Below, piece after piece: positions 1-26,131 of a stretch of DNA of 64,000 nt. The notes below the pieces were generated by a model. It was not told the DNA's origin, ran no database searches, and saw nothing but the letters and a program-made list of their open reading frames with translations. This DNA is from Nemertoderma westbladi (lineage: Eukaryota > Animalia > Xenacoelomorpha): NCBI GenBank assembly GCA_032718475.1, contig JAUCBJ010007752.1:26544-90543 (forward strand). Reading direction: 5' to 3'. Position 1 is the first letter of the stretch; every line of letters begins with the position of its first letter. The position numbers were made by a program, and so were the translations under genes.

Positions 1-998
1 AAGCCTGTTGCGAACTCAGCTTGATAAGATAGAATATGCTCCTGTGTTGCCTTTTTCCAATCAAAACGGAGGAGATTTCTGGTTTTTACCTCTGTGCTCC
101 GATGATCCGTCAATAGTTCTGTGACACATGGAACGCCAACATTAATCATAACTGGGACATGGTCAGAGAAGTTATTCACCTCATCCTTATCAAAAACTTG
201 TCCACTTCGAATTAAGTTAACACAAGCTTTAGGTATAATCACATGATCAATACAAGATGAACCTCTAGAGCCATAAAAAGTGTCCATCGGTCCACTAAAT
301 TTCAAAGTTTTATCAACTGCCATGAGATCAAGATCTGATAGGAAGTCATGTAAAATACGCCCTTGACGTGAAGGTTGCTTGTAATTATGGCGCACACCAT
401 GCAAGTAACCAAAATCCGCATTTCCATCACACAGAATAATTGGAGTTGCATCAGAGTTACCAATTAGTAGATCTTTAAGGCGACCTAATGTTTCCAGATA
501 CTTCTCAGTTCCTTTGCTGCTGTCTGGGGCATAGACAGATAAAATTGAAAAAACTGTACTACTGTCCTTTAATACAGCCTTAATGCCAATAATGTTATCT
601 CCAGATTTTATTTCTGTATAATCCGAGAAGAGTGATTTGCGAAAGATCAATGCAACTCCCCCAATCCCCCTCCCAACCCGAACATACTCTCCCTTTTCCA
701 TGGAATCACTAATTGTATAATAACTCTGGAATTCAGATGTAAGTGATTCCTGAAAGTGCGCAAATTCAATCTTATCCATCCAATGCTCCTGTATACCAAG
801 TATGTCACAATGTTTGAGTAACTCATTCACATAATCACTGTTCCCAGTTAGTCCCCGACAATTGTATGTAGTACAAGAAAAATTTATGTACATGTTTGTT
901 AGTGTGGAATTATTTAGTAACCTATTATTTGTATCCAAACTTGTCTGCACCCTATATGAATCACCAGTGTTAGGAATACTGACGTTGACCATGTCCAT
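1..998 (-). CDS. LINE ORF2, N-terminal APE endonuclease domain (partial; not in the ORF track)
   Basis: Manual translation: TYNCRG, GIQEHW, GRGIGGVA, SVYAP, DGNADF, SCIDHV, SDHVPV. In-frame ATGs at 998, 992 and 893; overlaps the ORF1 end (970). Confidence 0.9.
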   Translation of the reverse strand, partial: MDMVNVSIPNTGDSYRVQTSLDTNNRLLNNSTLTNMYINFSCTTYNCRGLTGNSDYVNELLKHCDILGIQEHWMDKIEFAHFQESLTSEFQSYYTISDSMEKGEYVRVGRGIGGVALIFRKSLFSDYTEIKSGDNIIGIKAVLKDSSTVFSILSVYAPDSSKGTEKYLETLGRLKDLLIGNSDATPIILCDGNADFGYLHGVRHNYKQPSRQGRILHDFLSDLDLMAVDKTLKFSGPMDTFYGSRGSSCIDHVIIPKACVNLIRSGQVFDKDEVNNFSDHVPVMINVGVPCVTELLTDHRSTEVKTRNLLRFDWKKATQEHILSYQAEFATG

Positions 999-3900
999 AA
1001 CGCCCCTGACTCATTAGATCGTCATAAGTGTGGTATGGTTTCCACCCACTCATTACAGTACCATGTGGCCAATTAGAGTGATTTAATATTTGTTTTTTAT
1101 ATTGACTTCTGACGACTATGATCATGTTCTTCACTTCTTGGAATTTCCGAGTTGAAAAACACTCCACTGGAATTCCAACGTTATTAATATAATCTAATAT
1201 ATCAATTTCATCAACATGTTGATTAATTCCTATGAGTTCTACAGAGCCCAAGCTGGAGCCATTGCAACCAATGGCATCCCTAAATGTATTGCCTCGGCTG
1301 GTAGGATGATTACTATTGTTGCATTTCATATAAGAGTTAGACTGTCCATACTTCTTAGGCCTATTGAAAATATTCTTTGCACCATTGTACACGGTTGTAG
1401 AGTCTAACCTAAAATCATTGCTCTTCATATTACATGGTCTGCCATGTTGGACCTTTAGATTATGACACATCATTCCAGATTCAGAATCCTTTACAGAGAG
1501 TTTACCCATCTGAACATAACTATCCTTACTACCTAACATTTGTTGGTATTTGTCTTCCAGATTGGCAGCTAGTGATGCCTCTGCATAGTCCGCTGGTATA
1601 CACTGCCAGTATGGGACACTTAGATTGGCCACTAAAGATTCCTCAGCAAAATCTGCAGGCATATGTTGATATTGATCATTTTGACTGGCAACAGATCCCT
1701 TAACATAGTCAGGCATTCTTTGTTTATATGAGTTACATTGATTGGCAACTAGTGATGCCTCTGCATAGTCTGATGGTGGACTTACTTCAATGTTACTGTG
1801 AGACTGAGACAAACAATCAAAACGATTACTTAGTGGCAAATCCGTCTTATATCTGATTTGGCCTACCTTTCCATTTACCTGCCTATATCCAATCCCAATC
1901 AATTTTTGTCCATCTTCCGTGAGTTTTTCAGCTCGAAGATTGTAATCCTTATTAATTGCAGGATGATGAGACTGATGTAAGTGAGAATTACTGCCAATAC
2001 CATCAATTGCAGCTTGTATCAAAAGTCGCTGATGACGCTCATGGGCAATGTCCTCATGTAGTGTTTGATTTTCATGATTTAATTTATCACAATAGTTCTC
2101 TAGGCAACATATCTTTGATTGCATTTGACTAATACTTAATATTAAGTCTTGGTGCATCTTTACAATCTCATCACTAGATGTGGCTGGAATATTCTGAAGG
2201 ACTGACTCATCCGACCTCAAACGTTTTCTACAGGCTTCAGTTAATTTTCCTTGGGCTACGGCACGCATCAGTTCGTAGATATCATTTGTGATCTCACTCA
2301 ATGCACTTCGTTGTCTGAGTTGGAGAGTTGCTGATTGTATTGATGACATTTGTCCCTGTAGTTGCTTAAATAAATGCAAACGAAGTTCATACCGTTGTGT
2401 GGATTTAAGATCAGTTATAAGCCCATTTATCTCCTTTCTGGGACGTTGAATGAATTTGTGAATCTCTTCAAAGTTCATGGACTCATGAAAAGATTTGTAT
2501 GCAACAGTTTGAGGTGGTGGGCATGGTGCAAAATCTATAGCATCAACATTGAGACTAGATGCATTTAAGCTATTCATTTCTAATTTATTGAAAGTTAAAG
2601 CATTTAAAATCCAATCCCGTAGCAGCTTACTATGCATCATTTTTGGAACAAAAAGGTCTGGTGTATCGAACGCAAAAGTATAGGCATATGCACAAACATA
2701 CAGGCCACAATCATAGCTATTTTTCTGCATTGGCAGAAACGGCCTTGATTTGATAGTGGTCCACCTGTCGATATATTTACTTTTCCGTGACTTATCCTTA
2801 GGTGTATTATTGTCTATAAAATTAAGAACATAGCATATCTCCTTAGTTATCTTACTGGGGTTTGTGTGCCCTAAAGAACACAAACGGGAGACTTCCTTAT
2901 CCTTCAAGTTTGCTATATGAATTACCCAGTGATTGTTGGAACATTCTGGAATAAGGAGTATCTCGCAGGCCGGATTAAGATACTGCTCAGCAATAAATTT
3001 GACAGCACCATCAATCTTGTAAGGGGCTGATAACTTTACTGCAAAGCCTGTATTAACCACCCCCACCCTGCTGGCAGAGGTACTACCAATTAAGTCCAAA
3101 AAGTGGTCAACCACACAGGTTTCAATGCAATGCTCTGCTTTTAAAGATTCAAAGTTTGTATAATCCTTAGGCCAGCGTGTGCTAAACATAGCTTTTTCAG
3201 TGGAAAGATATTCGATTGCAGTGCTCTTTGGTGATTTTTGGTCAACTAAAATTGAGTCAACTTTTATAGGAGATAAAATTTCAACTTCTGCTTGAGAAAG
3301 ATCTGTAGATTTCATCCTACAGTCCAATACTTGTACATCGGATTGAATGTCTGTATATACATTGGCTAATATCCCTGGAGAAACCACTTTTGGTGGTAGA
3401 TAAATTAAGTCAGTAGACTGTTCCAGCCATGTGTCCATATAGGATTGTTTTAGAGGCCGGGGAGTTATGGGCTGTTCTAAAGGTAAAACAACAGTTGGGG
3501 AGAAATTAATTCCCACCTCAGACTTAAGATAGGTAGGGGATATGTAACTAAAATCTTTAGATTTGTCCGGGTACTTGCCCCTCACTACAAACTTATTATC
3601 TACCAGATCTTCAACCAAAACAGAACCTACACTAGAGGCTGGTGGAAATCTGGAGTAGGAGGTTGTGCTAAATTCTCCCACTGGATTTGTTTGGAACACA
3701 GGGCTAAAGATTGGACCCTTTGGGACCTCAGGAGAGGGTATAGCAACCTCTCGGACCTTGGTAAGGTTAGGATCCTGATATATAGTGACCCCAGGATAGC
3801 AGTTTGTAACCATTGGGATTATAGATGCAGAGATCGAGTCTGTTAGGAGCTCGGGGGTAGAGTCCAGATACATTGAGCCGTTTGGAGCAGAGTTTGGATC

Positions 3901-5121
3901 CGTTGGGACCGTGATAGTGGAGTCCAGTACCTTCCAGACCTCAGTGGGTGGGTTCGAATCCATTGGGACTGCAGTGGCTAAGTCCGAAACCTTTGTGACC
4001 CTAGTGGCGAAGATCGCACTCGCAGGAACACCTGTGTCGGAGTTCGCACTCGCAGGAACCCCTGTGGCAGAGTTTGGGACCTTTGTTACACTGGTGGCGG
4101 AGTTCACATCCGTTAGAAATCCTGTGGCGGAGTTCGCACTCGCAGAAACCCCTATGATAGCAGAGTTCGCACTCGCAGGAACCCCTATGATGGCGGAGTA
4201 CACACTCGCAGGAACCCCTGTGGCAGAGTTCGTACTCACAGTAACCCTTGTGGCGAAGTTCGCACTCGCAGGAACCCCTGTGGCGGAGTTTGGAGCCTTT
4301 GACGCACCGGTGGCGGAGTTAACATCCGTTGGAAATCTTGTGGCGGAGTTCGCACTCGCAAGAACCCCTATGGCGGAGTTCGCAATCGCACGAACCCCTG
4401 TGGTGGATTTCGCACTCGCAGGAACCCCTAAGGCGGAGTTCGGATCCTTTGTCACACTGGTGGCAGAATTCGCATCTGTTGGAAATCCTGTGGCAGAGTT
4501 CGCACTCGCAGGAACCCCTATGGCGGAGTTCGCACTCGCAGGAAACCATGTGTCGGAGTTCGCACTCACAGGAACCCCTAAGACGGAGTTCGGATCCTTT
4601 GTCGCACTGGTGGCAGAGTTCGCCTCCGTTGTAAATCCTGTGGCGGAGTTCGCACTCGCAGGAACCCCTGTGACGGAGATCGCACTCGCAAGAACCCCTG
4701 TGGCAGAGTTCATACCCGCAGTAACCCCTGTGTCGGAGTTCGGATCCTTTGTCACACTGGTGGCGGAGTTCGCATCCGTTGGAAATCCTGTGGAGGAGTT
4801 CGCACTCGCAGGAACCCCTGTTGCGGTGCTCGCACTCGCAGGAACTCCTATGGCGGAGTTCAGATCCTTCAGGTACCCAGTTGGTGAGTTCGCATCTATT
4901 TGGACTCCATGTACGGAGTTCAAAACCTTAGAGACCTCAGCGGGGAATATCGGAACATCGCTGTTTGTAGACCTACCGGTATCAGTTAAAGGCAGCTTGC
5001 CTTTGGTGAAGAGACGATCTGCACGAATAAGTAGTTGAGCCCGACTTCCTGACGACGAGACGCCATTTTTCTCCAGTAGTTGTTTGAGTCGTAAAGTACT
5101 AGCCTTCCGCAACTTATCCAT
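970..5121 (-). CDS. LINE ORF1: SAP-like N-terminus, 10-aa repeats, Ulp1/C48-like cysteine protease, coiled coil, RRM-like C-terminus
   Basis: LRLKQLLEKNGVSSSGSRAQLLIRA (SAP-like); ANSATGVPAS repeats; NNHWVIHI and QKNSYDCGLYV (C48 His/Gln/Cys motifs); heptad region LENYCDKLNHENQTLHEDI. Confidence 0.8.
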   Translation of the reverse strand: MDKLRKASTLRLKQLLEKNGVSSSGSRAQLLIRADRLFTKGKLPLTDTGRSTNSDVPIFPAEVSKVLNSVHGVQIDANSPTGYLKDLNSAIGVPASASTATGVPASANSSTGFPTDANSATSVTKDPNSDTGVTAGMNSATGVLASAISVTGVPASANSATGFTTEANSATSATKDPNSVLGVPVSANSDTWFPASANSAIGVPASANSATGFPTDANSATSVTKDPNSALGVPASAKSTTGVRAIANSAIGVLASANSATRFPTDVNSATGASKAPNSATGVPASANFATRVTVSTNSATGVPASVYSAIIGVPASANSAIIGVSASANSATGFLTDVNSATSVTKVPNSATGVPASANSDTGVPASAIFATRVTKVSDLATAVPMDSNPPTEVWKVLDSTITVPTDPNSAPNGSMYLDSTPELLTDSISASIIPMVTNCYPGVTIYQDPNLTKVREVAIPSPEVPKGPIFSPVFQTNPVGEFSTTSYSRFPPASSVGSVLVEDLVDNKFVVRGKYPDKSKDFSYISPTYLKSEVGINFSPTVVLPLEQPITPRPLKQSYMDTWLEQSTDLIYLPPKVVSPGILANVYTDIQSDVQVLDCRMKSTDLSQAEVEILSPIKVDSILVDQKSPKSTAIEYLSTEKAMFSTRWPKDYTNFESLKAEHCIETCVVDHFLDLIGSTSASRVGVVNTGFAVKLSAPYKIDGAVKFIAEQYLNPACEILLIPECSNNHWVIHIANLKDKEVSRLCSLGHTNPSKITKEICYVLNFIDNNTPKDKSRKSKYIDRWTTIKSRPFLPMQKNSYDCGLYVCAYAYTFAFDTPDLFVPKMMHSKLLRDWILNALTFNKLEMNSLNASSLNVDAIDFAPCPPPQTVAYKSFHESMNFEEIHKFIQRPRKEINGLITDLKSTQRYELRLHLFKQLQGQMSSIQSATLQLRQRSALSEITNDIYELMRAVAQGKLTEACRKRLRSDESVLQNIPATSSDEIVKMHQDLILSISQMQSKICCLENYCDKLNHENQTLHEDIAHERHQRLLIQAAIDGIGSNSHLHQSHHPAINKDYNLRAEKLTEDGQKLIGIGYRQVNGKVGQIRYKTDLPLSNRFDCLSQSHSNIEVSPPSDYAEASLVANQCNSYKQRMPDYVKGSVASQNDQYQHMPADFAEESLVANLSVPYWQCIPADYAEASLAANLEDKYQQMLGSKDSYVQMGKLSVKDSESGMMCHNLKVQHGRPCNMKSNDFRLDSTTVYNGAKNIFNRPKKYGQSNSYMKCNNSNHPTSRGNTFRDAIGCNGSSLGSVELIGINQHVDEIDILDYINNVGIPVECFSTRKFQEVKNMIIVVRSQYKKQILNHSNWPHGTVMSGWKPYHTYDDLMSQGRYGHGQRQYS
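4000..4900 (-). repeat. 30-bp coding minisatellite within ORF1
   Basis: Recurrent GGCGGAGTTCGCACTCGCAGGAACCCCTGT units on the + strand, about 30 degenerate copies. Confidence 0.95.
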
Positions 5122-5255
5122 GGAGAGATTGTCTGAGATAGTTATTTATATATCCAAATTCTCCACAATAAATTGTCTAATTAATCAAAAATCAATCAAT
5201 TTATAATAAATAAAAATATAAAGAAATACCCAGTACCGTACAGCAGTACAGCAGT

Positions 5256-5448
5256 CTTTATTATTAAAGTCGCGACTTTATTATTTTAGTCGCGACTTTA
5301 TTATTTTAGTCGCAACTCTATTATTAAAGTCGCGACTTTATTATTTTAGTCGCGACTTTATTATTAAAGTTGCTACTTTATTATTAAAGTCGCGACTTTA
5401 TTATTAAAGTCGCGCCTTTATTATTAAAGTCGCGACTTTATTATTTTA
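5256..5448 (+). repeat. 20-bp satellite array (TTTATTATTAAAGTCGCGAC)
   Basis: Direct tandem copies; the consensus unit contains the palindrome TAAAGTCGCGACTTTA. Confidence 0.97.
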
Positions 5449-5659
5449 ACTTTATAATTTGTAACCAAGTAACATAAATGACCCCCTTGGAAATAAGCTG
5501 CAAAGCTTTAGGGGTAATCCTATATGTTATGTTGGACAATACCTTTATACCGGTACATTGTTTGGTGTATTTGTTATTGTTTTTACATAATGTATAAATA
5601 AATTGTAGTTGTTGTTGTAATTGTTGTACTTTGACAATCTTGAGGAAGTTCTTAGAATT

Positions 5660-6260
5660 ATGAATTATTCTAAAGGTGCCATATCAGTAATGTTTACAGG
5701 AACTGGTGATGGACAATTGTTGCCAATGTATGTTGTGTATAAGAGTATTGGTCTCTGGTCTACATTGTGCGAGCATGGGCCCCCTGGGTGATTTGATACC
5801 AGGGCATTTGAGGACTGGTTTAAAGGGAGCGTAGTGCCATGGGCTAGTAGATTGGAAGGTCAAAAAGTTGTAATAGGGGACAACCTCAGCAGCCATCTAA
5901 GACTAGAGGTTCTTCGCCTGTGCAGTGAAAATAATATTCTCTTCACATTTATGCTGAAGTACACAACACACAAAACCAAACAATTAGATGTTGCGTTATT
6001 TGCTCCTCTTTAGAAGTCTTGGCAATGAATCATCACAACTTACAAGTGTAAACATCCCCATGCTACCACTATTGACAAAGATCTATTCCTAACCTTTCTC
6101 TGTCAGCTATTGAGAGCTTGTGGTATAGCTCCACTGGAATGCACCAAGGTGTTGTCAAATTGGAAACTGCCATGAAAGCATAGGTGCCATAGGTGCAGTA
6201 TTTGTGTGAAGCAAGAGTGGCAGACACAAATTCCAAACCACGAAGGTATGGCATACATTT
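5660..6260 (+). pseudogene. pogo/Tigger-like DDE_1 transposase remnant (copy 1)
   Basis: Manual translation with stops: SVMFTGTGDGQLLPMYVVYK, FEDWF, KVVIGDNLSSH, TTHKTKQLDVALFAPL. Confidence 0.8.
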
Positions 6261-6320
6261 TGTATTTTTATTTGCTAATTATATTCGTCCCAAATTTCAT
6301 GCTATTTATTCACGAATATT

Positions 6321-7011: not shown

Positions 7012-7478
7012 ATGAATTATTCTAAAGGTGCCATATCAGTAATGTTTACAGGAACTGGTGATGGACAATTGTTGCCAATGTATGTTGTGTATAAGAGTAT
7101 TGGTCTCTGGTCTACATTGTGCGAGCATTGGCCTCCTGGGTGATTTGATACCAGGGCATTTGAGGACTGGTTTAAAGGGAGCGTAGTGCCATGGGCTAGT
7201 AGATTGGAAGGTCAAAAAGTTGTAATAGGGGACAACCTCAGCAGCCATCTAAGACTAGAGGTTCTTTGCCTGTGCAGTGAAAATAATATCCTCTTCACAT
7301 TTATGCTGAAGAACACGACACACAAAACCAAACAATTAGATGTTGCGTTATTTGCTCCTCTTTAGAAGTCTTGGCAATGAATCATCACAACTTACAAGTG
7401 TAAACATCCCCATGCTACCACTGTTGACAAAGATCTATTCCTAACCTTTCTCTGTCAGCTATTGAGAGCTTGTGGTAT
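7012..7478 (+). pseudogene. pogo-like transposase remnant (copy 2), split by the BEL insertion; resumes at 25929
   Basis: Near-identical to copy 1 at a 1352-bp offset. Sequence from 25929 continues exactly as copy 1 (GGTATAGCTCCACTGG). Confidence 0.85.
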
Positions 7479-7605
7479 TATAGAATTATATTCCCTAAAT
7501 GCCGTGGATTTTCAAAATTTATTTTTTATTCGAATTAACTTTGTAAAGATTGCTTTGAGTTCTCATTTGTATTGGTTCTATCATTTGTACATCTATCGGT
7601 CAAGT

Positions 7606-7692
7606 GGTTCAGTAGCTCAGTCGGTAGAGCGTTGGAAATTATATGTGTAGTAGGTATTGAGTTCGAATCCTAGTAAGTGCGAATTATTTTTT
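7606..7692 (+). ncRNA. tRNA-derived Pol III cassette in the 5' LTR (not a functional tRNA)
   Basis: A-box TAGCTCAGTCGG with a D-arm (GCTC/GAGC) at 7613, B-box GAGTTCGAATCC at 7659-7670, T6 at 7687-7692. No proper anticodon or acceptor stem. Confidence 0.65.
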
Positions 7693-7749
7693 GTGCAGAA
7701 TTTCAACTCATTTAAATTAACCGCTACAAATTAATTGCATTTGCCTGTA

Positions 7750-8031
7750 CCAATGAGACTGTAGTTATTTGATTGTAACCAATGTCGTGCAAGTTATATA
7801 TTAGCTGGACCAATAGCTATCTTTAAAACCTTGTTAGAATTTATAGAACAATCGAGAATTTTCTCGATTGATTGCGGCACAAATTTAGTATATAAAGGTG
7901 CGATTTCGTTCATTATTATTGCTTACACAAACTTCTTATACAATCTATTATATCAATATTCACATCTATTCTGTCGTGCTTAGTTTATTTCAGATTACAT
8001 TGTACATATTATTATAATCTTTTGTAATAAA
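7750..8031 (+). promoter_or_regulatory. Candidate LTR Pol II promoter and poly(A) signal
   Basis: CCAAT at 7750, 7779 and 7810; TATATAAA at 7889-7896; AATAAA near 8025. Confidence 0.55.
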
Positions 8032-9430
8032 AGTTAGAAATACTTGTCAATCTCAGCCCTTTTCTATCTGTTTTACCATGGATTCACTACGGTGAACAAA
8101 CTTAGGGACAGGATGGCCGGCTAGAGATCGGGCCGCAGCAATGAACGGGAACATCACGGGAATGTAGACGAGAGACAACCCGCAATACCATCTAGAGTTA
8201 TTCGCCCATCGCCTGAAAGGTTAGACAGCGTTCGATCCTTGCTACCTAAGTATAAGACCAAAAGATCAAAAAGGTAGACGTAGTGACACGCTGTAAGCCT
8301 AAAATTACATCATAGGGACTGTACTGTCTTGATTCAGGAAAAACCGCAGTAGACCTTCATATTCCTACGGGGGGGGGGGGGGGGGGGAGCGCAGGCAGAT
8401 ACTAGTACGCAGATAGGACGTAGGCACACCGGTACGAAGCATACAAATTGGTTAGGGTGCAGCAAACTGTACGCTTAACTCTTGCTAAGTACAGGTGCGT
8501 CTGTGACTATTTGCCGTACAACGGTGTCCATTACATCAGAACTTGTAGGCTAGGAGGGTTATTGTGTTTTCACCTGAATTAGGATTGTACCGTTCAGGCG
8601 GTAGGGCAGTTTACACTAGGCGCAAATAAATTGAGGCTATCAGGGATATACTAACATCTACCGTGTCCCCGCCAACGCCCTAATAGGAAGTTACCCGGAC
8701 TACCTGGGTGACTAAAATTCTAGATAGGAGCCAGGATAGCTATTAGTACCCGTACGCCTACAGTAGTAAACTAACACATCTCTTCTTAGTATCAGGGACC
8801 TGGTACCTAAAATTGCCGAATTCTGGGCGTAGTATTAACCTTATGCCTGAATTTGAGTCCTGGAAATACGCAAGAGGGGAAGGAACCTTATCATTCGTGA
8901 GTATTAGACCTACAAGTTATAAAATTAGAATATTCGTAAAATGCACACCGTACCCAGTAATTATATATGTGAAGGAGCAAAACTGCTTTTGACCGTTCAG
9001 AATTAACACACGCGCGTTAGAAATTATTTACACCTCAAAATATATAAAATTAACTTTCGTCCTTACTGCACTTTGCTCGCTAGTTAGACATCTCCAAATA
9101 TCTGCCTCTGTACCTAGCTAGCGTCCCTTTGCCCAACCATATAAATCACACCGCGGCAAAGTATACGAGCCCCTTAGTCCGTCAGTGAGTCAGCCTGATT
9201 TTAGGATTCGCTGCGCGGGATTTTGTTTTCTCGAAGTTTGTCTGCTCGTAGACTGTTTTCTGCCTCACCGGTCATAAGAGATCGATACTGCAATATATTC
9301 GCTTACTTAGAGTTTACTGTTTTGGTGAGAAGGTCGGATTTATGATTTGATTCACAAACTTTACAGTAAGATATTGCAGGTATTGTTACCGTCTCTTCCG
9401 ATAGTAGGAATAGGCGTATCTCTTCAATTA

Positions 9431-9441
9431 GTAGGAATATG
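9431..9441 (+). promoter_or_regulatory. Non-tRNA primer-binding site candidate GTAGGAATATG
   Basis: Abuts the 5' LTR end, lacks TGG, and is the exact reverse complement of 8358-8368. Confidence 0.6.
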
Positions 9442-10239
9442 TTTTACTGAACTACGGTTCGGTAGGACTAAAGTTATTTGAAAATTTTGTATTTTGAGGT
9501 AAAAATTTGTATTTGATTAGCTAAGTGCTAATTTTTGAAATAAAATTTGATTTGAACCGCGTGTAAAATATTTTGGAATTGAATACCGGTGTTTAAAAGG
9601 GTTTAAATACCATATTGTACCGGTACAAAATTTTCGTAAAAAGTAAAACCTAACTCTTTTGTTTTTTCAGGATTCAGAACTCATTTCTAGACTGTAACGG
9701 GAGCAAGACCGTGTTTAGCAAGTTTGGGAGATAGATAACTCAACAACTTTGGTTGGGAAAATCGCGTTTCGTCCGCAACGTTAAAAACGGAAAGGTTCAC
9801 GTCCGGTTTGTATCTGGGAATCTGTTTTTCTGGAGAATTATTGGAGTGGGTGAGTTCGAAAAGTTGCATAAATAAGTTAGGCATTACCGTATTAGTTAAA
9901 ATTATTGTGGGTTCCACTGTCTCAAGTATTTATGCATTCCGTATGATTTCTTTGTTCATTGCTGAATTAGTCCGTATTATTGTATTTAATTTACCTTTTG
10001 ATAACGCATATCGTTATCCAATTTATTTGTTATAAAATTGGCCGCTAGGCTAATTTTATTATATACTTATTCCGTGACATTTATTTGCTGTAAAATTGGC
10101 CGTTTTAGGCTAATTTTATCCATCTGCTATAAAATCGGCCGGTAGGCTAATTTTATAAGACTGTAATTAGTACCGTTTAGATAAAATACGGTAAGTTTGA
10201 TACTTTGACACTCACTTTACTTGACTTACAACTACCGAA

Positions 10240-13200
10240 ATGAGTGACAAACAAGACTATACGAAGAATACACCTACCGACTATGACTCATGTGACGCGG
10301 ATAAGTCAGCAGCGGAAGAACAACAGGGGAAGACTCGCGAGCCTACCGAACCTACACCGTGTGCGTCACCAGTACATCCAACGGGAGTACCGGATGCCGT
10401 AGTACGAGGCGACGGCAGGACCGAGGACTTTCTAACTGTTCCGCAACCTAGATACAGGGAAACGGAATTGGTAAGTTCAGCAGGAAGCACAGAAAGTGTG
10501 GTTAGAAGCGTCGGTGGATACATGGCGCATATAACCAGGAGTATTGGAGAAGGCCAACGCATATTAGACGAGTTGACCGCTCCGATGTCTCGATTCGAGT
10601 TCTACACCCTCCAGGTTAGAGTACAAAGTAGAGTACACAAGTCCGTAGATAACCTAATTGGTCTACAAGATCTAGCTAGACAGAGACAGGACATGGATAC
10701 TCAACTTAGAATCCTCGAGAAACTAATGATCGCTAGGGAGAAACTGATTCAGTTTAAGTCGACGATTAGACAGATACAACAGGAACAAGCGGACCAGTTG
10801 TTAGGTGAGTCAGTTTCGGACGAATTATTACAGCCCGAGGAAGAACAGGAACTGTACCGACTGGATGGACAATTGAAACACCTGACGGATCACTTACGCA
10901 TGTGCGGCGAGGACGTCGGAGATTGGGAAACCGTGCCGGAGGCTACGAGGGAAACTTCGCTCGCACAAATCGAACTGGCACCGGGAACACTAAATCAATC
11001 ACTGGTGAGTATTCGTAGCGAAATCTGCGAAGGAAGTATGGTCACGTCAGAAGTCGCTCGACAACAGCAAGAATTCTGCCGACAACGACGAGAAATGGAG
11101 GAACAAGCTCAACTTCTAGTGATGCAGGCGGCAGTAGAAGAAGAGAAGCTACGCGTTGCGAACGTAGAGAGAATCTCTCATTTACAAGAACAAGCTGAAT
11201 TAGAAGCAGCTGAAGTAGAAAGGTTAGAGGTAGACATTGCCCAACAAACGGCAGCGGCTGATTTAGCGCAACGAAACGCAGCGGCAGAATTAGAGCGACA
11301 AACGGCAGCGGCGGAATTAGCGCAACGAAACGCAGCGGCAGAATTAGAGCGAGAACGGTTAGTTTCGGAAGCACGGGCCGAAATGAAAACACGGCAAATA
11401 AAAGCTCAATCCGCTATACGACAAGCAGAGTTTGAGGCGCAACGACAACAAACGGAACAACGAGAGAAGACAGCTAAACTTCATTTCGAACTCGAGAAGA
11501 AGGCGAGAGAATTAGCGAACGCCGAGGAAGATCTGGATCAAAAGGCCCGCGATCGATCGATGAGATCTCGTGACGGACATGATTTGGACCAGTTAGAGGT
11601 AAGACATCGCCAAATTCAGGAACGGAAGAAGGAAGGAAGCGTAGGAGCACCCGGACGGGAACGACAATTAGTAAAAGACGTGTGTCAACGATTCCCACAG
11701 GTAACTCATATGTTTGCACCGGTTACGACTAAGGAACCTGTTTCGATTGCTGGTAGTAGTAATATTTCTCCTATCCATGGTGCGACGGAACACAGGTTTG
11801 TTATTCCGGACAAGTTTACACCGCCAAGAGCAACGTCGTCGCCTATTTTGAAAGTCAAGGTAAGTAACCCACCGATTACAGATCGTAGTAGTTTATTGAC
11901 CGGACCTGCGCTACTGACGACAAAACAGGTGAGTCCACCTTTGACACCTAAACCCGTTACACACTACGCTTACCCAATGACGTTTCGACCTACAAGGCCA
12001 GTTGTTTCAAATGCTGTCATTCGCCCACCGATTCAGTTTACATCGCAATCTACGACTTCGAGGAAGACTTGTGAGCCTACCGAACAACGGAGACCAGTGG
12101 ATACGCGACCGCTCAATCAGTTTACATCGCAATCTACGACTTCGAGGAAGACTTGTGAGCCTACCGAACAACGGAGATCAGTGGACGATGTTCCGAGACG
12201 GAATGTTAGAATTCGTACGACGCAACGGACGCGAGCACGTCGACCACCATATCCAGATGATAGTAGTACTTCGAGCGAATCGGATTACCCGAAACGCGAG
12301 GTATTTAGAACAGGGGCGGCCGATGAATATAAACGCGAGCGTTCAGACAACTCCTTTGCAGACAATCCTCCACAGAATACACCAACACAGAAGGCGTTAC
12401 AACCAACGGACGCAATTAGTACACAACAGTTCGCCGACATTCTGCGACCAGTTGTCAATAAGTTGGCTCAGATCGAGGAACGTCTGGAGGAAGGTTACAC
12501 CGACAGTTCGAGAAATTCCGAATTCGAACACAATAGACACCCGAAGGAACCACAAAGACCGGTACCTTCAAACCCCACATCGAATCAGGGAAAAGCGCCA
12601 AGAAGGGATATCAACAAGGTTACCAACCAAGGACGCGAAACTCTGAACGTTGCCGAGGAGATAGCGAAATTCGCAGCCAGACAGGGATTGCCGGTACAAC
12701 AACCACCAAAGTTTTCCGGTAGCTCAAAACACTGGCATACTTTCGTAGACTATATCGAATCCCAGATCGCCGTGTGCGCCTTTACATCACGGGAGAAGTT
12801 CAATTACCTGCTTCAAACGTTGTCAGGAGAACCTAAACGTTTGGCAGAGACCTTCGTTGGTGTACCGGACGCTTTCGAACTAGCGTACGATCGTTTAACT
12901 TCGATATACGGAGGTACAGTTAGTATGGCCAGGTCAGTAATAGAGGAACTCTGTAAGGGAGGGGCTATCACTAAACCCGTCGACTTATTAAAACTAGCTG
13001 ACGAGATCAAGAACGCTATCACAACTTTAAGATCCATTGGACAACTTGATTACGGGAATACCCCTACAGTCCTATTAAAGATCATAGGACGACTCCACCA
13101 TCGACTTCGTCGGGAGTGGAGAAAGGTTGAATACCAGCGAGAAGAGCGGGGAGGATTCTTAAAATTAGAAGATGTGTACCTTTTAATATCCAGGGAGGCA

Positions 13201-16200
13201 GTAGTAGAAACTAGATCTAACTACACCGACCAGCACATCGTGGCAGAAGGAATCACATTGCCATCCTCCAACCGACAAAAACCCCAGACAACATCCACCA
13301 AGACGGCCACTTACGCCACACCGACGGAATCACGACAATTCTCGGACGGTAGTAGGGTATCTGCGCCCATTGGGACAAAACAGACGAGACAGCAACTTGG
13401 TACCGACTTCAGTGGCTGCCAATACTGCGAGCATCTAGGCAAGCGGTATATCGGTCACAAGTTGAGGGGTTGTCGACAGTTTCGCGAGTTGAACTCGGAA
13501 GAACGGCGGCTGCAAATACGGCCATTGGACTCTTGTTGGCGGTGTACGCGACACGGACACGTCCGTAAGGATTGCCCAAATACTGACACTTGTCCATCCT
13601 GTGGACGCAACCACGACGGTCTGCTCCACACAGACAGCCACACGCCGACGAAACGCTTCGCCAGGGAACACCCGGAAGCAGCAGCGAGATGTGATGCGGC
13701 CTACCGAAAACGAGAATCGAAAACGACTCCAACCTTCGTGACCCATATTGAGGATTGCTTCTCAGAACAATCCGGATCGTCGGACGAAGAATCAGAAGAC
13801 GACGACGAATATTCCAATGGAGACGAACAACCGTCGATCGCGCTTCTGACCACTGACCAACTGAAGGGATTCAGTGTAATCCCGATTAAGATCACTGGCA
13901 CAAAGGGGAGTAAGAGGATCTACGCGATTCTAGATTCAGCCTCATCTCACAGTTACGTGGATGAAAAGATAGCTGACGTCGTGACGGATCTCAGACAAGG
14001 TAAGCACGTCAGTTATACAGTAAGTAGTATGCACGGACAGCGTGCAATACCAGTGACACGAGTTAAGTTGGACTTAGACTCTCTTCTTCCGAAATCGCAA
14101 CACAGCGAGAGGGAGAGGTCTTTGTTGCCCTTTAAAGATCTAACCTTTGCGGCCACGAAGGACTTTAGTAACCTACTAGGTCCAGTGCCGGAACAATCTC
14201 TAGAGGACCGTAAGTATTTCAGACACCTTGGTGTACCCGAATGTCCTGTCAATTATAGATCGGTAGCAATGCTGATCGGGACAGACCAATTCAACCTACA
14301 TCAGGTGTGGGAAACCAGACCATCGGCAGTCGTAGCGGGAAACGCATACGCCTGCAGAACGCCGATAGGGTGGTATACTCGAGCGCCTGTGCGCACACTA
14401 GACGTAAGTGACGAGGAAGACGATGTACAGAGTACATGTAGTTTATTAACTACAAATTCAATTCATTCCTTTTCACACGACGTGAACCATACTACACTAC
14501 AGTCGACAAAACATGACAGACGTGTAACTAGTATGATAAGTCACAAAGAGCAGCTAATCCACAAGGTGAGTTTAGAACTTGGGGAGAAGACGAGTCAGCT
14601 AGAGATTCCATCGACGACAGATGATAGGCTTGCAAGTCTACCTACCCCAATAACCTCAACAGTGCCCGTCGATATCGATGATGACGCGTTGAAAATTCAT
14701 CAGTTGGAACAAGCCGCTTTGGACAAGGAATTAACGGAGAAGACTATCAGGTGGTTAGAACAAGATACAGCTGAACCTGGTAGCTACGAACCTTGTATGT
14801 CGGAACAGGAGAAACAATCTCTGAAGATCATGGAAGATACTATCCACCAGACGAAAGACGGACATTATGAGGTAGGGATGTTATGGCGTAGCCAAAGCCC
14901 TAAACTCATAAACAACTATCCACTAGCCTTGAGACGTCTACACTCAATACGGCAACGTCTATTAAAGGACGAGAAAGCCCATCTGCAGTACAACACCCAG
15001 ATGGAGACGTATTTGACTAAAGGATACGCTATCCGAATGACGAACCCGGAGATAGTGACTGACCAAACATATTACTTGCCACATCACTATGTGAGACACC
15101 CCGACAAACCAGACAAAGTACGCGTAGTCAACGACTGTGCGGCTCTGTTTGAGGGAATGTCCCTCAATAGTGAGTTGATGGATGGACCAAACATGAATAA
15201 TTATCTAATGGGGGTGATTATGCGCTTCCGTCAGCGTCAGGTAGCTTTTACTTGCGACGTTGAAGCGATGTTTCACCAAGTGAAAGCGTTAGAGCGAGAC
15301 AGAGACAGTTTGCGGTTCCTCTGGTATCCGGAAGGGGACTTAAGTCTACCACCAGCGACTTACCAAATGCAAGTTCGCGTTTTCGGTGCCAGAGACAGCC
15401 CAAATTGCACGATGTACGCCCTAAAACAAGCCGCTAGAGATCAGAAACATCTATATGACCCAGAGATAATTAAAATCGTAGAACGTGACTTTTACGTAGA
15501 CGACGGATTACAAAGTTGCGACACAGTAGAACGTGCTACAACAGTAGCACATCAATTACGGGACTGCTTGGCGGGCGGAGGTTTTAACCTCACCAAATTC
15601 GCCTCAAACAGTGCCGAATTAGTAGACTCATTCGGGACAACTGAGCGTGGAGGTGGTGACATAGACCTAGAGTTTGAACCACTACCGACGACTAAGGTGT
15701 TGGGGCTCTTTTGGGACCCAAACACAGACAACTTTCGAGTGAAAGTGAGACTGGACAGTCAAGAGAACACACTGACAAAGAGATCATGCTTGTCAAAGTT
15801 GAGCCGATTGTTCGATCCGTTAGGATTCATCAGTCCAGTGATACTGCAAGCCCGCATTTATATGCGCAGTATATGGAAGGATGGACTGACATGGGACGAG
15901 CCGATCTCATCAGACCAAGTGGACTTATGGAAAACCTGGGAGACGGAATTATCTTCGCTAGAGGATTATTCCATACCCAGAGTTTACTTTCCATTACAAA
16001 GTACATTTCCTGACAACTTGGAACTACACTGTTTTTCTGACGCCAGTGACAACGGTTTTGGTGTGGCAGCGTACTTGCGCAGACAAGTAGACTCAGACGA
16101 GTTCGATGTTTCGCTCATTACTTCTAAGGCTAAGACCATGCCTACTAAGTATATGACGACACCACGAGCTGAGCTACAAGCCGCAACCCTGTCAACCACC

Positions 16201-18861
16201 ATCGTGAACCTCATACAGACAGAACTACAGTCGAGTTTACAGATATTTTATTGGACTGACGCGACGTTGGTTTTATTTTACATAAACAACGACACACTCG
16301 AATTCAAGACATTCGTTGCTAACCGTCGCGCGGAAATTCTAGACCGTTCAATAAAAGAGGATTGGCGACATTGTCCCGGACCACAAAACCCAGCTGATAT
16401 TGCGTCGCGAGGAATGATGCCTGAGGAATTCTGTAAACCGCAGAACAAAGAATTTTGGCAACACGGACCCCAATTCTTGCAGAAATCGACACAAGATTGG
16501 CCACCATTATACGACAACAAGTCTAACACTATCCCTAAGGACGCCGAAATCAAGAAACCAAAAAAGGGGAAGACAAAGAAAAGGACGACGGCGGCAAAAC
16601 TCAAGAAAAAACCGAAGGCGAAATGGAAAGATATAACTTCAAAGGTCAAGAGAGGAAGACTTGCGAGCCTTTCTACACCAGACATATCGCCAGACGGTCA
16701 ACCAGACACGTTACCAGACGGTCAACAAGACACGTTACTAGACGGTCAATCAGACATTCTACCAGACATTAGTAACGCATTGACAAACAGTAAAGCCGCA
16801 GTTTCTCTATTGGAGCGGCCTTCTATCGACAAACAACCAGATACGTTACCAGACGTATCGCCAGACACATTACTAGACAGTCGACTAGACACTAGTAACA
16901 TACTGACAAATAGTGAAGCCGCAGTTTCCCTATTGGAGCGGCCTTGTATTGACAAACTACCAATTTTGACACACTTGAGCAACCATAAGCACGGTGAAAC
17001 CTCATGTATTACAGATGTGGGTAGTACCTACGCTAATGTAAATACAGGTGTTACTTTGCGCTCAAGAGACATACCGAACTTGCAACCTATGGTGAGACCT
17101 GGGATTAATGTCGGCAGAAAAATAAGTTTACCGAAACCTGCTGACCCCATAGAGTTCAAACCACCATTAACGATCGACTTACAAAGTACTGACGATCAAG
17201 GTAAGAAGACGAAGAAGGACAAATTACTTGTAGACCCGGACGGATCAACAGTCAACAAGGGAATACTTACCGGCGGACCCGTGGGCCCTTCTAGTAATTC
17301 AAAACCTTCCAAGTTCTCCATTGACTTACCTGATGACGTCACAAATACTTACGTCGACCGTATTGTAAACTTAACAGATTCTTGGACAAACGCTTGCCGA
17401 AAATTAGCGTGGATTGTACGTTTTGTACAATACGTTAAAGGCAAACGTGACTTTACACGTCGACTTACATTGGCTGAGATTGACAGGTGTGAGATTAAAT
17501 TAATTCGCCATTACCAACTGCGATATTTCGCGCGCGAATTCACATCTATAAGTCAAGGTCAATCAATCAAGTCGTCACCAATACTGAGTTGGAGTCCGAT
17601 TATTTATAATGGCTTAATTTGTCATAAATCTCGGCTTCAAAACATTGACTTTAACACAAACTTTAGGTACCCAATAATAATACCGCAACACCACGAACTA
17701 CAACGTGCAATGATACTGGACGCACATCTACATCTGAAACACGCTGGAAGACACCACTGTCTTTCCTACTTACGTACTAGATTTGTATTAATTAGACCCA
17801 GTAAAGCGTTAAGTTCAGTGACACGTACGTGTATTATTTGTAAAAAGGTACATTCTAGAATAGGTACCCAAGAAATGAGTGAACTACCACAAGCACAACT
17901 TCAAGCATTCAGACCACCTTTTACCGAGACTGGAATTGATTGCTTTGGTCCCATACATACGAAACGTGGACGTATACTAGTAAAACGCTGGGGACTGATT
18001 TTCACATGTATGTCCAGTAGGGCAGTTCATATTGAACGTGTGATGGATCTTTCCACCAACACGTTTATACTAGCACTGCGGCGATTTATCGCTAGACGCG
18101 GACTAGTGAAATGCTTGTACTCAGACCAAGGGACAAACTTTGTTGGTGCTCGAAATGAGATTGCTAGAGCCTTTAAGAAATTAGATCATGATCAAATCTC
18201 GAACGAACTGCAACCTCACAAGATTGTTTGGAAGTTCAATCCTCCAGATAGTCCATGGAGAGGCGGAGTCTGGGAGAGATTGATTAGATCTATAAAGACG
18301 GCAATGGCAAAGGTCATTCCAGTAAACCACATACTGACAGACGACCAACTGACAACATTGTTTGTTGAAATCGAGGCAATACTAAATACTAGACCAATAG
18401 TATTAGTACCCGATGACAAACAATCTCAGTTCGCTTTGACACCGGCACACCTGCTTATGCAGGCACCGACTACTTTGACGCCGATTTCTATTCCAATAGA
18501 AAGCGACAGCTACGGTAGAAAAGCGTGGAAAATCACGCAACTACTGGCTAACAAATTCTGGGAAATATGGCAAAACCATTATTTGCCCTCTATTTCTGCC
18601 AGAACAAACTGGTACAATAACACCCGCGCATTAAAGCCGGGAGATCACGTGCTGTTAGCGGAAGTGAATCTAAAAAGACGCTTCTGGATAACAGGTGTAA
18701 TTTTAGCCACACATCCATCTATGGATGGAGTGACAAGAACTGTGACAGTACGGACAATTGACGGTCGTACAGTAGACAGACCGACTCAACGTCTCGTACT
18801 CCTTGAAGAGACTCGTAACGAGTCTGGAGACTACAAATCTCCACCTAATACTAGTAAATAA
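10240..18861 (+). CDS. BEL/Pao Gag-Pol polyprotein (Gag, 3 Zn knuckles, PR, RT, RNase H, IN)
   Basis: CWRCTRHGHVRKDC and CPSCGRNHDGLLH; ILDSASSHSY (PR); YLPHH, RVVNDCAA, FYVDD (RT); LHCFSDAS, NPADIASRG (RNase H); GIDCFGP, SDQGTNF, GGVWERL (IN). Confidence 0.97.
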   Translation: MSDKQDYTKNTPTDYDSCDADKSAAEEQQGKTREPTEPTPCASPVHPTGVPDAVVRGDGRTEDFLTVPQPRYRETELVSSAGSTESVVRSVGGYMAHITRSIGEGQRILDELTAPMSRFEFYTLQVRVQSRVHKSVDNLIGLQDLARQRQDMDTQLRILEKLMIAREKLIQFKSTIRQIQQEQADQLLGESVSDELLQPEEEQELYRLDGQLKHLTDHLRMCGEDVGDWETVPEATRETSLAQIELAPGTLNQSLVSIRSEICEGSMVTSEVARQQQEFCRQRREMEEQAQLLVMQAAVEEEKLRVANVERISHLQEQAELEAAEVERLEVDIAQQTAAADLAQRNAAAELERQTAAAELAQRNAAAELERERLVSEARAEMKTRQIKAQSAIRQAEFEAQRQQTEQREKTAKLHFELEKKARELANAEEDLDQKARDRSMRSRDGHDLDQLEVRHRQIQERKKEGSVGAPGRERQLVKDVCQRFPQVTHMFAPVTTKEPVSIAGSSNISPIHGATEHRFVIPDKFTPPRATSSPILKVKVSNPPITDRSSLLTGPALLTTKQVSPPLTPKPVTHYAYPMTFRPTRPVVSNAVIRPPIQFTSQSTTSRKTCEPTEQRRPVDTRPLNQFTSQSTTSRKTCEPTEQRRSVDDVPRRNVRIRTTQRTRARRPPYPDDSSTSSESDYPKREVFRTGAADEYKRERSDNSFADNPPQNTPTQKALQPTDAISTQQFADILRPVVNKLAQIEERLEEGYTDSSRNSEFEHNRHPKEPQRPVPSNPTSNQGKAPRRDINKVTNQGRETLNVAEEIAKFAARQGLPVQQPPKFSGSSKHWHTFVDYIESQIAVCAFTSREKFNYLLQTLSGEPKRLAETFVGVPDAFELAYDRLTSIYGGTVSMARSVIEELCKGGAITKPVDLLKLADEIKNAITTLRSIGQLDYGNTPTVLLKIIGRLHHRLRREWRKVEYQREERGGFLKLEDVYLLISREAVVETRSNYTDQHIVAEGITLPSSNRQKPQTTSTKTATYATPTESRQFSDGSRVSAPIGTKQTRQQLGTDFSGCQYCEHLGKRYIGHKLRGCRQFRELNSEERRLQIRPLDSCWRCTRHGHVRKDCPNTDTCPSCGRNHDGLLHTDSHTPTKRFAREHPEAAARCDAAYRKRESKTTPTFVTHIEDCFSEQSGSSDEESEDDDEYSNGDEQPSIALLTTDQLKGFSVIPIKITGTKGSKRIYAILDSASSHSYVDEKIADVVTDLRQGKHVSYTVSSMHGQRAIPVTRVKLDLDSLLPKSQHSERERSLLPFKDLTFAATKDFSNLLGPVPEQSLEDRKYFRHLGVPECPVNYRSVAMLIGTDQFNLHQVWETRPSAVVAGNAYACRTPIGWYTRAPVRTLDVSDEEDDVQSTCSLLTTNSIHSFSHDVNHTTLQSTKHDRRVTSMISHKEQLIHKVSLELGEKTSQLEIPSTTDDRLASLPTPITSTVPVDIDDDALKIHQLEQAALDKELTEKTIRWLEQDTAEPGSYEPCMSEQEKQSLKIMEDTIHQTKDGHYEVGMLWRSQSPKLINNYPLALRRLHSIRQRLLKDEKAHLQYNTQMETYLTKGYAIRMTNPEIVTDQTYYLPHHYVRHPDKPDKVRVVNDCAALFEGMSLNSELMDGPNMNNYLMGVIMRFRQRQVAFTCDVEAMFHQVKALERDRDSLRFLWYPEGDLSLPPATYQMQVRVFGARDSPNCTMYALKQAARDQKHLYDPEIIKIVERDFYVDDGLQSCDTVERATTVAHQLRDCLAGGGFNLTKFASNSAELVDSFGTTERGGGDIDLEFEPLPTTKVLGLFWDPNTDNFRVKVRLDSQENTLTKRSCLSKLSRLFDPLGFISPVILQARIYMRSIWKDGLTWDEPISSDQVDLWKTWETELSSLEDYSIPRVYFPLQSTFPDNLELHCFSDASDNGFGVAAYLRRQVDSDEFDVSLITSKAKTMPTKYMTTPRAELQAATLSTTIVNLIQTELQSSLQIFYWTDATLVLFYINNDTLEFKTFVANRRAEILDRSIKEDWRHCPGPQNPADIASRGMMPEEFCKPQNKEFWQHGPQFLQKSTQDWPPLYDNKSNTIPKDAEIKKPKKGKTKKRTTAAKLKKKPKAKWKDITSKVKRGRLASLSTPDISPDGQPDTLPDGQQDTLLDGQSDILPDISNALTNSKAAVSLLERPSIDKQPDTLPDVSPDTLLDSRLDTSNILTNSEAAVSLLERPCIDKLPILTHLSNHKHGETSCITDVGSTYANVNTGVTLRSRDIPNLQPMVRPGINVGRKISLPKPADPIEFKPPLTIDLQSTDDQGKKTKKDKLLVDPDGSTVNKGILTGGPVGPSSNSKPSKFSIDLPDDVTNTYVDRIVNLTDSWTNACRKLAWIVRFVQYVKGKRDFTRRLTLAEIDRCEIKLIRHYQLRYFAREFTSISQGQSIKSSPILSWSPIIYNGLICHKSRLQNIDFNTNFRYPIIIPQHHELQRAMILDAHLHLKHAGRHHCLSYLRTRFVLIRPSKALSSVTRTCIICKKVHSRIGTQEMSELPQAQLQAFRPPFTETGIDCFGPIHTKRGRILVKRWGLIFTCMSSRAVHIERVMDLSTNTFILALRRFIARRGLVKCLYSDQGTNFVGARNEIARAFKKLDHDQISNELQPHKIVWKFNPPDSPWRGGVWERLIRSIKTAMAKVIPVNHILTDDQLTTLFVEIEAILNTRPIVLVPDDKQSQFALTPAHLLMQAPTTLTPISIPIESDSYGRKAWKITQLLANKFWEIWQNHYLPSISARTNWYNNTRALKPGDHVLLAEVNLKRRFWITGVILATHPSMDGVTRTVTVRTIDGRTVDRPTQRLVLLEETRNESGDYKSPPNTSK

Positions 18862-19518
18862 TTAGGAGTTTACAAATAGATTTCCACGTACCTGTACACT
18901 GTAGTAAGGACAGCGGTAGAATTCCATTGTCTTTATATGTGAACATTGAGGGTAGTACCCTTATGTGTCACATAGGAGCGGGATTTGTAGGTATAAGAAA
19001 TGGAATTCTACTTGGAACTCACAATATTGAGACATTTTCGAAATTTTAGACAATCCATTTGGATTTGAAAAATTTTTAAAATTTTCTCCAGTGAATAGAT
19101 TTCAGGGTACAGTCGGGTGGAACTTAAAATTAGAGAAACAAGAGAGGAAGACTTGCGAGCCTTTCTTAAAATTTTAATTAAATTTTACACGGTCTTGTTT
19201 CAATAAGTTACGTCAAAATAGACTCCCCTATATTTATTACTAATTCTTGACTGCTTATTTTCTGATAATAGTTTGGGATCAAAAAGTGAGTATTTTAGAC
19301 TCACGGCCAGTTTAGCCCAAATTCGTTTTTATTTCGGCAAAAATTTTAGATAAGAAGCAGCGTGTCATTAAAGAAACCCTAGATCTTAGGCTATGGGTAG
19401 GAGGTTAGAGCGTTGTCGAGCCCAAAGGGCAGACGAAACTCTCACGTCTCCTCACAACTAACTACAAACTCTGTTGTATTCCCTCTAGTAGTAATGATTA
19501 TGTAACTACACCCTAATT

Positions 19519-20286
19519 ATGGAGAAAGGGATACAAGGAGAGCCGAGATGGGGATATGATATCCAAGAGGAGGCAGCAGCGCCATTCGAAAGATTTGGAG
19601 CCAAGGATTACACTATATTTGGTATAAAAGAATTATCGGAAAGTACAGCGAAACTCGCGAGAACTAAATATGACTCGAATGTATTAAAGAGAAGGCAAAA
19701 CGCATTAAACGAAAGAATCGAAAGTTTGCGCCAAACCTTCAACGAACTTTACCCGTACGATGCTTTGTGTGATACGGGAGACATTAGCGAAGACCCCGAT
19801 ACTGAAATTAGTCGTTTGTATCATACCATGCAATACCTAAAGGCGCACGAACCTATGCCCGCGGTAAGAGATGAATTCGATGGAATGCATCTTTACAGAC
19901 GAACTCGAGGGGACGATAGAGAAACCAAAGAAGCATTTTCAGTTTATAAACTTTATTATCAATGCGGTTCTTGTATGCGCGAACAACGAAATGCGATTCC
20001 AATGCGTTTGAATAAGGAAAATCCCGAACCGATATTGGCGAGGTGTTCGAATCATCAACAACTACGCTACCAGGAAGGAGGGTATCCTTTATCGAATCCA
20101 TATCATTCATTTGCTATGACCGGACCAAAGGCGGGAGAAACTGTCATTTACCCACCTAAGGTTGTTGAACCCGATGTATTTGAACTTACGCTGGATGAGG
20201 CAAATCAGTCAACCCGCGAAAAGAAAGAAGCTCTTAGCCTATACAGAGCCTACAAGGCTTTCGAGAAAGGTGAGATGGAAGAATAG
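19519..20286 (+). CDS. BEL accessory ORF A, unknown function (coiled segment, possible CxxC..C..H)
   Basis: 255-aa ATG ORF inside the element. No evident signal peptide or transmembrane segment. Confidence 0.65.
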   Translation: MEKGIQGEPRWGYDIQEEAAAPFERFGAKDYTIFGIKELSESTAKLARTKYDSNVLKRRQNALNERIESLRQTFNELYPYDALCDTGDISEDPDTEISRLYHTMQYLKAHEPMPAVRDEFDGMHLYRRTRGDDRETKEAFSVYKLYYQCGSCMREQRNAIPMRLNKENPEPILARCSNHQQLRYQEGGYPLSNPYHSFAMTGPKAGETVIYPPKVVEPDVFELTLDEANQSTREKKEALSLYRAYKAFEKGEMEE

Positions 20287-20349
20287 GGTGGAAGACTCGC
20301 GAGCCTACCTTGCCATTGGACGTCACACGATCAAACTCCAGCTAAGGAG

Positions 20350-25928: not shown

Positions 25929-26131
25929 GGTATAGCTCCACTGGAATGCACCAAGGTGTTGTCAAATTGGAAACTGCCATGAAAGCATAGGTGCCATAGG
26001 TGCAGTATTTGTGTGAAGCAAGAGTGGCTGACAGACACAAATTCCAAACCACGAAGGTATGGCATACATTTTGTATTTTTATTCGCTAATTATATTCGTC
26101 CCAAATTTCATGCTATTTATTCACGAATATT

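Follow-up and report, generated by a model that had tools for sequence, protein, structure and literature searches.

So far, one Gypsy group has been described as priming reverse transcription from the element's own RNA, and the same has been predicted of a single Copia lineage; Cer7 of C. elegans is said, with Frame et al. 2001 as the reputed source, to encode its own tRNA-like primer. In the Tf1/sushi group (Tf1, Tf2, and Tj1), there is no tRNA site, and an 11-nt primer binding site (PBS) next to the 5′ LTR is complementary to RNA from the LTR of the same element; RNase H cuts the Tf1 transcript after base 11 (PMC7175516 and PMC4600332, as excerpted). For the TAR lineage of Ty1/copia (Houba, Osr-1) and for Tcn1, self-priming was predicted from a complement of at least 10 nt placed 0 to 5 bp past the LTR; these are plant Copia and Gypsy lineages, and the excerpted text of PMC6317226 describes no splice-built primer for them. 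Full-text searches of open-licence papers in PubMed Central and bioRxiv listed none on self-priming in BEL/Pao; a precedent may exist in subscription articles, Repbase reports, or supplements. The words primer, PBS, tRNA, priming, and intron are all absent from a survey of BEL/Pao (PMC3118150), and the excerpts of further papers (PMC3601003, PMC6934838, PMC3286476, PMC5371799, PMC554778, and PMC8220671) contain no self-priming BEL/Pao element.

The window analyzed here, a 64,000-nt stretch of the Nemertoderma westbladi assembly (contig JAUCBJ010007752.1), harbors at positions 7479-25928 an intact BEL/Pao LTR retrotransposon of 18.4 kb, which is organized as follows.

7474-7478 and 25929-25933, no strand: 5-bp target site duplication (TSD) GGTAT, flanking both LTRs
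7479-9430, plus strand: 5′ LTR of 1952 nt with TA..TA ends, from alignment to the 3′ LTR
10240-18861, plus strand: open Gag-Pol polyprotein of 2873 aa in the order PR-RT-RNase H-IN, from Pfam domains
23964-23973, plus strand: short purine-rich tract at the PPT position ahead of the 3′ LTR
23974-25928, plus strand: 3′ LTR of 1955 nt, with a primer copy at 24853-24863 and a run of 20 G (G20) at 24864-24883

The two LTRs agree in 1951 of 1956 alignment columns, and the boundary was set at 9430 because of the 5-bp TSD, the repeat itself extending one G further. Pfam matches of the polyprotein comprise Peptidase_A17, DUF1759, DUF5641, and Integrase_H2C2; its catalytic-type RT and RNase H motifs are intact, and all 120 protein matches listed carry PF05380. 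Features that define BEL/Pao were found, namely a single Gag-Pol with DUF1759, Peptidase_A17, integrase, DUF5641, and the PR-RT-RH-IN order, and an LTR pair within a TSD of 4 to 6 bp. TG..CA ends, which are usual for BEL/Pao but not strict, are replaced by TA..TA, and the LTR of one relative described below (L033) also begins with TA. The Ty3/gypsy chromovirus polyprotein that typifies Tf1/sushi is absent, BEL/Pao domains being found instead. By its proteins, the element belongs to BEL/Pao and falls outside the Tf1/sushi group, and it would be Tf1-like in using its own RNA. Polyprotein type and 5-bp TSD are shared with the tRNA-primed BEL/Pao elements Achilles and L030, whose LTRs instead end in TG..CA and whose TGG site fits tRNA-Tyr (PMC4580426, as excerpted). 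The closest protein relatives are 43-44% identical, those that are named coming from marine invertebrates. In an RT-RH tree of the fetched loci, which omits L033, and an integrase tree, which omits L005, L008, and L019 (short or broken matches), the window element forms a long unplaced branch.

The preliminary description of this DNA had stated that no TGG-type PBS follows the 5′ LTR and that the LTR itself holds the complement of the bases found there, and both statements held. The first TGG occurs at 9574, 143 nt away, and a CCA-ended primer is impossible at any offset from -10 to +15; a PBS complementary to a CCA-ended tRNA beside the LTR, as in tRNA-primed elements, is therefore missing. 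By eye, none of 189 metazoan tRNA 3′ 12-mers (PMC13524379, supplement 1, as excerpted) lies within two mismatches of the putative PBS. The pairing involves three adjoining or facing features.

8358-8368, plus strand: contiguous 11-mer, candidate self-primer, complement of the PBS
8369-8387, plus strand: run of 19 G (G19) directly 3′ of the primer, which would become the template 5′ end after a cut
9431-9441, plus strand: putative PBS at offset 0 from the LTR end, with no TGG

Positions 9431-9441 are the exact reverse complement of 8358-8368 (11 of 11), and the 3′ end of the primer meets the TSD-defined LTR boundary with the G-run coming next, just as first reported. The primer 11-mer occurs solely at 8358-8368 and in the 3′ LTR; the length of the G-run and the AG tail differ between the two LTRs and among copies. 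A PBS complementary to the own LTR is what characterizes Tf1/sushi, and the element also conforms to the rule proposed for TAR and Tcn1. Dinucleotide shuffling of the LTR produced an 11/11 complement at offset 0 in 3 of 5000 cases and, with offsets 0 to 3 allowed, a match in 13 of 5000, while 15 of the 14517 positions of the internal region begin an LTR complement of at least 11 nt. The primer:PBS duplex was computed at -13.7 kcal/mol; in a comparison with shuffles, the PBS duplex scored -16.1, which 0 of 40 shuffles attained, the best null being -10.9 ± 1.3. A chance match in a 2-kb LTR, with the true PBS overlooked, has to be weighed here: at 13 of 5000, some false cases are to be expected in a genome-wide scan, and primer position 8360 is variable. 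A T>C variant at this position makes up 21% (run X1) and 24% (run X3) of the summed contig depth and is carried by the one X4 contig there. It mismatches the PBS unless 9439 changes as well; among the 40 of 81 variants listed, none lies past 9353. With 9439 unchanged, 8360C would leave 8 perfect pairs and -8.7 kcal/mol.

Related elements bear on this question. Three alignment scans of genome contigs yielded 32 loci on 30 contigs, 31-43% identical, whereas single-protein scans found one short unrelated locus in metagenomes and 0 loci in either viral or genome contigs, and alignment scans of viral contigs returned 0 loci. We dropped two duplicate contigs (L024 and L029), seven short loci outside the LTR-pair screen (L002, L015, L017, L018, L020, L023, and L025), and 14 loci with no readable 5′ LTR end, which left nine readable elements. 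These 30 distinct BEL/Pao contigs (L002-L033) stem from assemblies that carry bacterial or archaeal labels, L030 even inside a Wolbachia chromosome record, and are probably host DNA. The LTR ends of L012, L013, and L019 were placed by eye, and the acceptor filter was lowered from 8 to 7 pyrimidines after L012 had been inspected by eye. Nested within the BEL/Pao element of L012, at 1575-6294, is another LTR element that has 331-nt repeats and a TSD of its own.

TGG is missing from the LTR boundary in eight of the nine readable elements, which come from five assemblies; L008 and L013 have a TGG at offset 10, for which no match in the tRNA list was seen by eye. Seven of these eight relatives carry a perfect own-LTR complement of 11 to 14 nt (14 nt in L033, 12 in L019, and 11 in L003, L005, L012, L013, and L014), and L008 pairs at 10 of 11 positions. 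In seven of the eight, the match spans a predicted LTR intron of 77-1022 nt with a GT(R)AG donor and a pyrimidine-AG acceptor, 3 to 7 bases being drawn from the first exon; it is contiguous in L014, as in the window element, whose LTR contains 0 GT..AG introns that would yield a splice-built primer of at least 10 nt. The PBS starts 0 or 1 nt from the LTR end in six relatives, 4 nt in L014, and 8 nt in L019, and the distance from primer to LTR end, 1062 nt in the window element, is 44-149 nt in the relatives. At least six distinct PBS sequences occur among the eight, each paired by its own LTR, whereas cross-pairings, in which a PBS was matched to the LTR of a different element and to its spliced forms, reached 11 nt in 0 of 90 cases (best 10). 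Compensatory changes between PBS and LTR motif, proposed beforehand as a check, were found within one family, where two differences between L003 and L005 at the exon end are matched by two in the PBS. Shuffled PBS regions attained the observed length 0 or 1 times in 100 to 200 for eight matched elements, 21 times in 200 for L008, and 179 times in 200 for L030. The latter serves as a natural control, with a TGG at the boundary, a site that differs by one mismatch from a tRNA-Tyr end on the list, and an own-LTR complement of only 5 nt.

Considering that L003, L005, and L013 form one clade and L008 and L012 another, these relatives amount to about five independent cases. The signature in seven of eight relatives against 0 of 90 cross-pairings makes a chance match with an overlooked true PBS scarcely credible. 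The preliminary proposal of tRNA-free self-priming is strengthened on two counts, since no CCA-ended primer fits and relatives change the PBS and its LTR complement together, and we consider it likely that the element uses a self-derived primer, as judged from these sequence patterns. The trait is not limited to the window element, the signature being spread, by sequence, over several branches of the sampled BEL/Pao. That a whole BEL/Pao branch self-primes from its own LTR seems likely to us; common descent of the trait is only inferred, because the relatives are 31-44% identical and the window element is a long unplaced branch. Kinship with L033, hinted at by the TA start, a similar PPT, and the PBS start, was rejected, as the two are not sisters in the integrase tree.

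The position of the primer within the transcript was approached through promoter motifs and contigs from four runs (X1, X3, X4, and X5).

7750-7896, plus strand: likely Pol II promoter with CCAAT at 7750, 7779, and 7810 and a TATA box at 7889, from a motif scan
8220-9670, plus strand: intron whose splicing strips the mRNA of primer, U5, and PBS, with a GT donor, a CTAAC branch at 9650, a pyrimidine tract, and AG

These motifs place the inferred transcription start near 7915-7925. Over 8150-9700, a joint of 8219 to 9671 across GT..AG was seen in X4 alone of the four runs, as one contig at depth 250 with a 25-letter side (joint 8217-9669, cut +2), and X4 contigs cover 8150-8219 and then splice onward from 8219. 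Run X4 is recorded as 'DNA?' and was read as RNA because of the GT..AG joint and a contig rich in A>G changes; coverage by X5 is low, with chance matches at the G-run. In our reading, one transcript class starts above 8150 and has a spliced form without primer, U5, and PBS, the contigs showing neither start nor level. The A>G-rich X4 contig lies at 8556-9260, has depth 37, and carries 94 differences; almost every listed one is A>G, a pattern that resembles A-to-I hyper-editing of LTR RNA.

This arrangement bears directly on a Tf1-like alternative, in which a second start at or just above 8358 would make the primer the first bases of the genomic RNA. The preliminary description had favored such a start, which finds no support in the promoter motifs at 7750-7896, the X4 splice from 8219 to 9671, or the exon junction spanned by the primer in seven of the eight relatives. 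Whereas the Tf1 primer consists of the transcript's first 11 bases, the window primer would lie about 440 nt inside the likely one. The initiator word claimed at 8357 is indeed there, but it carries no weight, being one of 19 YYANWYY matches in the LTR and having no TATA box upstream, and an X4 contig at 8301-8497 crosses the site. Alternative start sites are used by Tf2 (PMC5341516, as excerpted), and this speaks for the alternative, as do some of the predicted folds.

8542-8566, plus strand: predicted to pair with 8345-8371 in a rival helix, -23.7 kcal/mol
9441-9468, plus strand: predicted 12-bp hairpin with a cUACGg loop directly after the PBS, from folding

When folding started anywhere from 8250 to 8358 (seven start points), the primer:PBS duplex had a probability of about 0.9; starts at 7915-8200 gave 0-0.02 for this duplex and 0.97-1.0 for the rival helix (6 of 6 folds). 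Tf1 forms a pretzel of three duplexes (bioRxiv 10.1101/2022.12.06.519325, as excerpted), and here, too, the U5 end would pair best within the LTR with the G-run past the primer, but 22 of 40 shuffles equalled this arm, and the post-PBS arms were matched by 8 of 40 and 10 of 40. Tf1-style pretzel arms show no excess over shuffles. Moreover, an upstream exon is required in the relatives, and the primer cannot simply be the first bases of their unspliced RNA because an exon junction is spanned in seven of the eight. Altogether, we regard priming from a 5′ end at 8358 as unlikely.

The folds also suggest that the primer region is bistable, with two mutually exclusive predicted helices. The rival helix is kept by 4 of 4 variants listed at its paired positions, although four transitions are weak evidence, and 8360 is unpaired within it. 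Downstream, positions 9431-9480 fold with z = -4.1 against 200 shuffles, and the closing pair of the 9441-9468 hairpin has a probability of 0.8-1.0 in 12 of 12 folds. The CAGTA/TACTG extension described earlier for the primer pairing is present across the bulge but loses to this cUACGg hairpin and was discarded. Two exclusive helices could mean that the pairing is a structural switch controlling splicing, packaging, or dimer formation and that the actual priming falls to a piece of host RNA, for instance half a tRNA or some other small RNA; half-tRNA priming is known in Copia lineages (PMC6317226, as excerpted). A switch has no need to end at the LTR edge, whereas the PBS does so to within 0-1 base in six of the eight relatives, and their several PBS sequences, for each of which the element's own LTR supplies a match, would demand a separate host fragment per element. 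A switch with a host-derived primer is improbable on these grounds.

The reading that we prefer, and which the balance of sequence evidence somewhat favors, is that an internal piece of the element's unspliced RNA serves as primer once a cut immediately ahead of the G-run has released it. Transcription would start near 7920, and the unspliced RNA would fold 8358-8368 onto 9431-9441. By analogy with Tf1, the element's RNase H would then cut between 8368 and 8369 to give a 3′ OH; for such a mechanism, a 5′-terminal primer is not required. That the cut falls at the G-run is an inference. RT would copy U5 from 9430 back to the G-run, and the cDNA would jump to the 3′ LTR via the stretch that extends from the G-run to the poly(A) site past 8625. 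The spliced RNA (8219 to 9671), which lacks primer and PBS, would serve as mRNA only. A G-run at the presumed cut and an intron whose splicing leaves the mRNA without primer and PBS both set the window element apart from Tf1. Two further LTR features belong to this stretch.

8625-8630, plus strand: AATAAA, candidate poly(A) signal downstream of the primer, from a motif scan
9390-9416, plus strand: U5 hairpin containing a second GTAGGAATA at 9404-9412, and the leading unit of a duplicated 27-nt stretch at the LTR end

Both the AATAAA at 8625 and the second GTAGGAATA had been pointed out previously and were recovered; another AATAAA lies upstream of the primer, at 8026. Loose contig ends at 9419 (five contigs in X1 and three in X3) suggest that some copies lack the second GTAGGAATA unit at 9390-9416. 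A rare copy in X1 and X3 has the last 89 U5 bases swapped for 26 others, rejoining at the LTR end (9340-9430).

In most relatives, splicing of the LTR intron would build the primer, whereas the window element and L014 would carry a ready-made one, probably from the copying of a once-spliced 3′ LTR. The contiguous primer of the window element thus probably follows intron loss, and the element appears, from its sequence, to be a plainer, intron-less form of the self-primer trait.

The AATAAA found 0-31 nt past the primer in six of the eight relatives speaks for a different origin of the 3′ OH, namely the genomic RNA's 3′ terminus or that of a short LTR-only transcript acting in trans, trimmed to the duplex edge by a 3′-5′ exonuclease. 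Such an enzyme might be sought among the extra ORFs that follow pol.

19519-20286, plus strand: ORF2, extra, of no family, behind a strong splice acceptor at 19458-19488
20287-21519, plus strand: ORF3, extra, in frame past the ORF2 stop, a weak WRN-like 3′-5′ exonuclease lead
21444-23243, plus strand: ORF4, extra, with CCHC zinc knuckles (zf-CCHC E 0.0046, under the curated cut-off; Atlas 0.88)

ORF2 and ORF3 are joined in frame across a single TAG, and ORF4 overlaps ORF3 in a different frame. By eye, ORF3 seems to show a likeness to exonuclease motifs. It lies near WRN-like exonucleases in Atlas at 0.92, but with a recognition of 2151, below the threshold of 2300. Neither Pfam, PDB sequences, nor two protein searches gave a match, 0 homologs were found in 1.84 billion proteins, and the structure model was unusable (pLDDT 33.5). 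With one weak Atlas result and neither the other protein searches nor the model in support, ORF3 is at best a weak candidate for an exonuclease. Extra ORFs after pol, one possibly a 3′-5′ exonuclease, are shared with the bdelloid elements Juno and Vesta, which are not BEL/Pao and whose ORF3 is a DEDDy exonuclease, the likeness of the window ORF3 being a weak lead only. The bdelloid enzymes were proposed to trim element RNA (PMC5408684, as excerpted, in which the words 'PBS' and 'priming' do not occur). In the window element, however, about 280 nt of structured RNA (z -4.3), beginning with G19, would need trimming, and L033 has no room for such an ORF past its integrase. Priming from a trimmed 3′ end or in trans is, in our estimate, quite improbable. 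Highly doubtful, too, is a composite scenario in which a splice-built primer replaced tRNA across a wide BEL/Pao branch and the window element then lost the intron, with the G-run marking the primer end and its own ORF3 exonuclease finishing the primer.

If an internal primer is indeed cut from the element's own RNA, a third LTR superfamily would self-prime, and it would do so via an internal primer that is splice-assembled in most sampled relatives. The start of reverse transcription would be tied to host RNA processing, and the element might be freed from tRNA supply and tRNA-fragment silencing. As a rule for annotation, BEL/Pao elements with a seemingly missing PBS should be tested for spliced LTR forms.

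Two other features of the element deserve mention. Ten plus-strand copies (up to 3 mismatches) of a 16-nt motif, the core of which is an 8-nt palindrome, lie in coding and noncoding parts of the element, and 0 copies lie outside it on either strand of the window.

10328, 12062, 12146, 16654, 19146, 20290, 21829, 23264, 23461, and 23658, plus strand: starts of the 16-nt motif

A packaging or dimerization signal is possible. In U3, positions 7606-7691 (also in the 3′ LTR) contain a tRNA-like A box (7613), a D-arm hairpin, a B box (7661), and a T run; ARAGORN and Rfam gave nothing relevant and did not recognize these boxes, which could possibly be a Pol III promoter or an insulator. As a primer source they were rejected, no PBS complement being found there. 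The remainder of the window includes several tandem arrays of 20-30 nt and the following neighbors.

970-5145, minus strand: ORF with a Ulp1/C48 peptidase domain
52805-55852, plus strand: endonuclease-RT ORF of a non-LTR element
61890-63086, minus strand: ISXO2-like transposase
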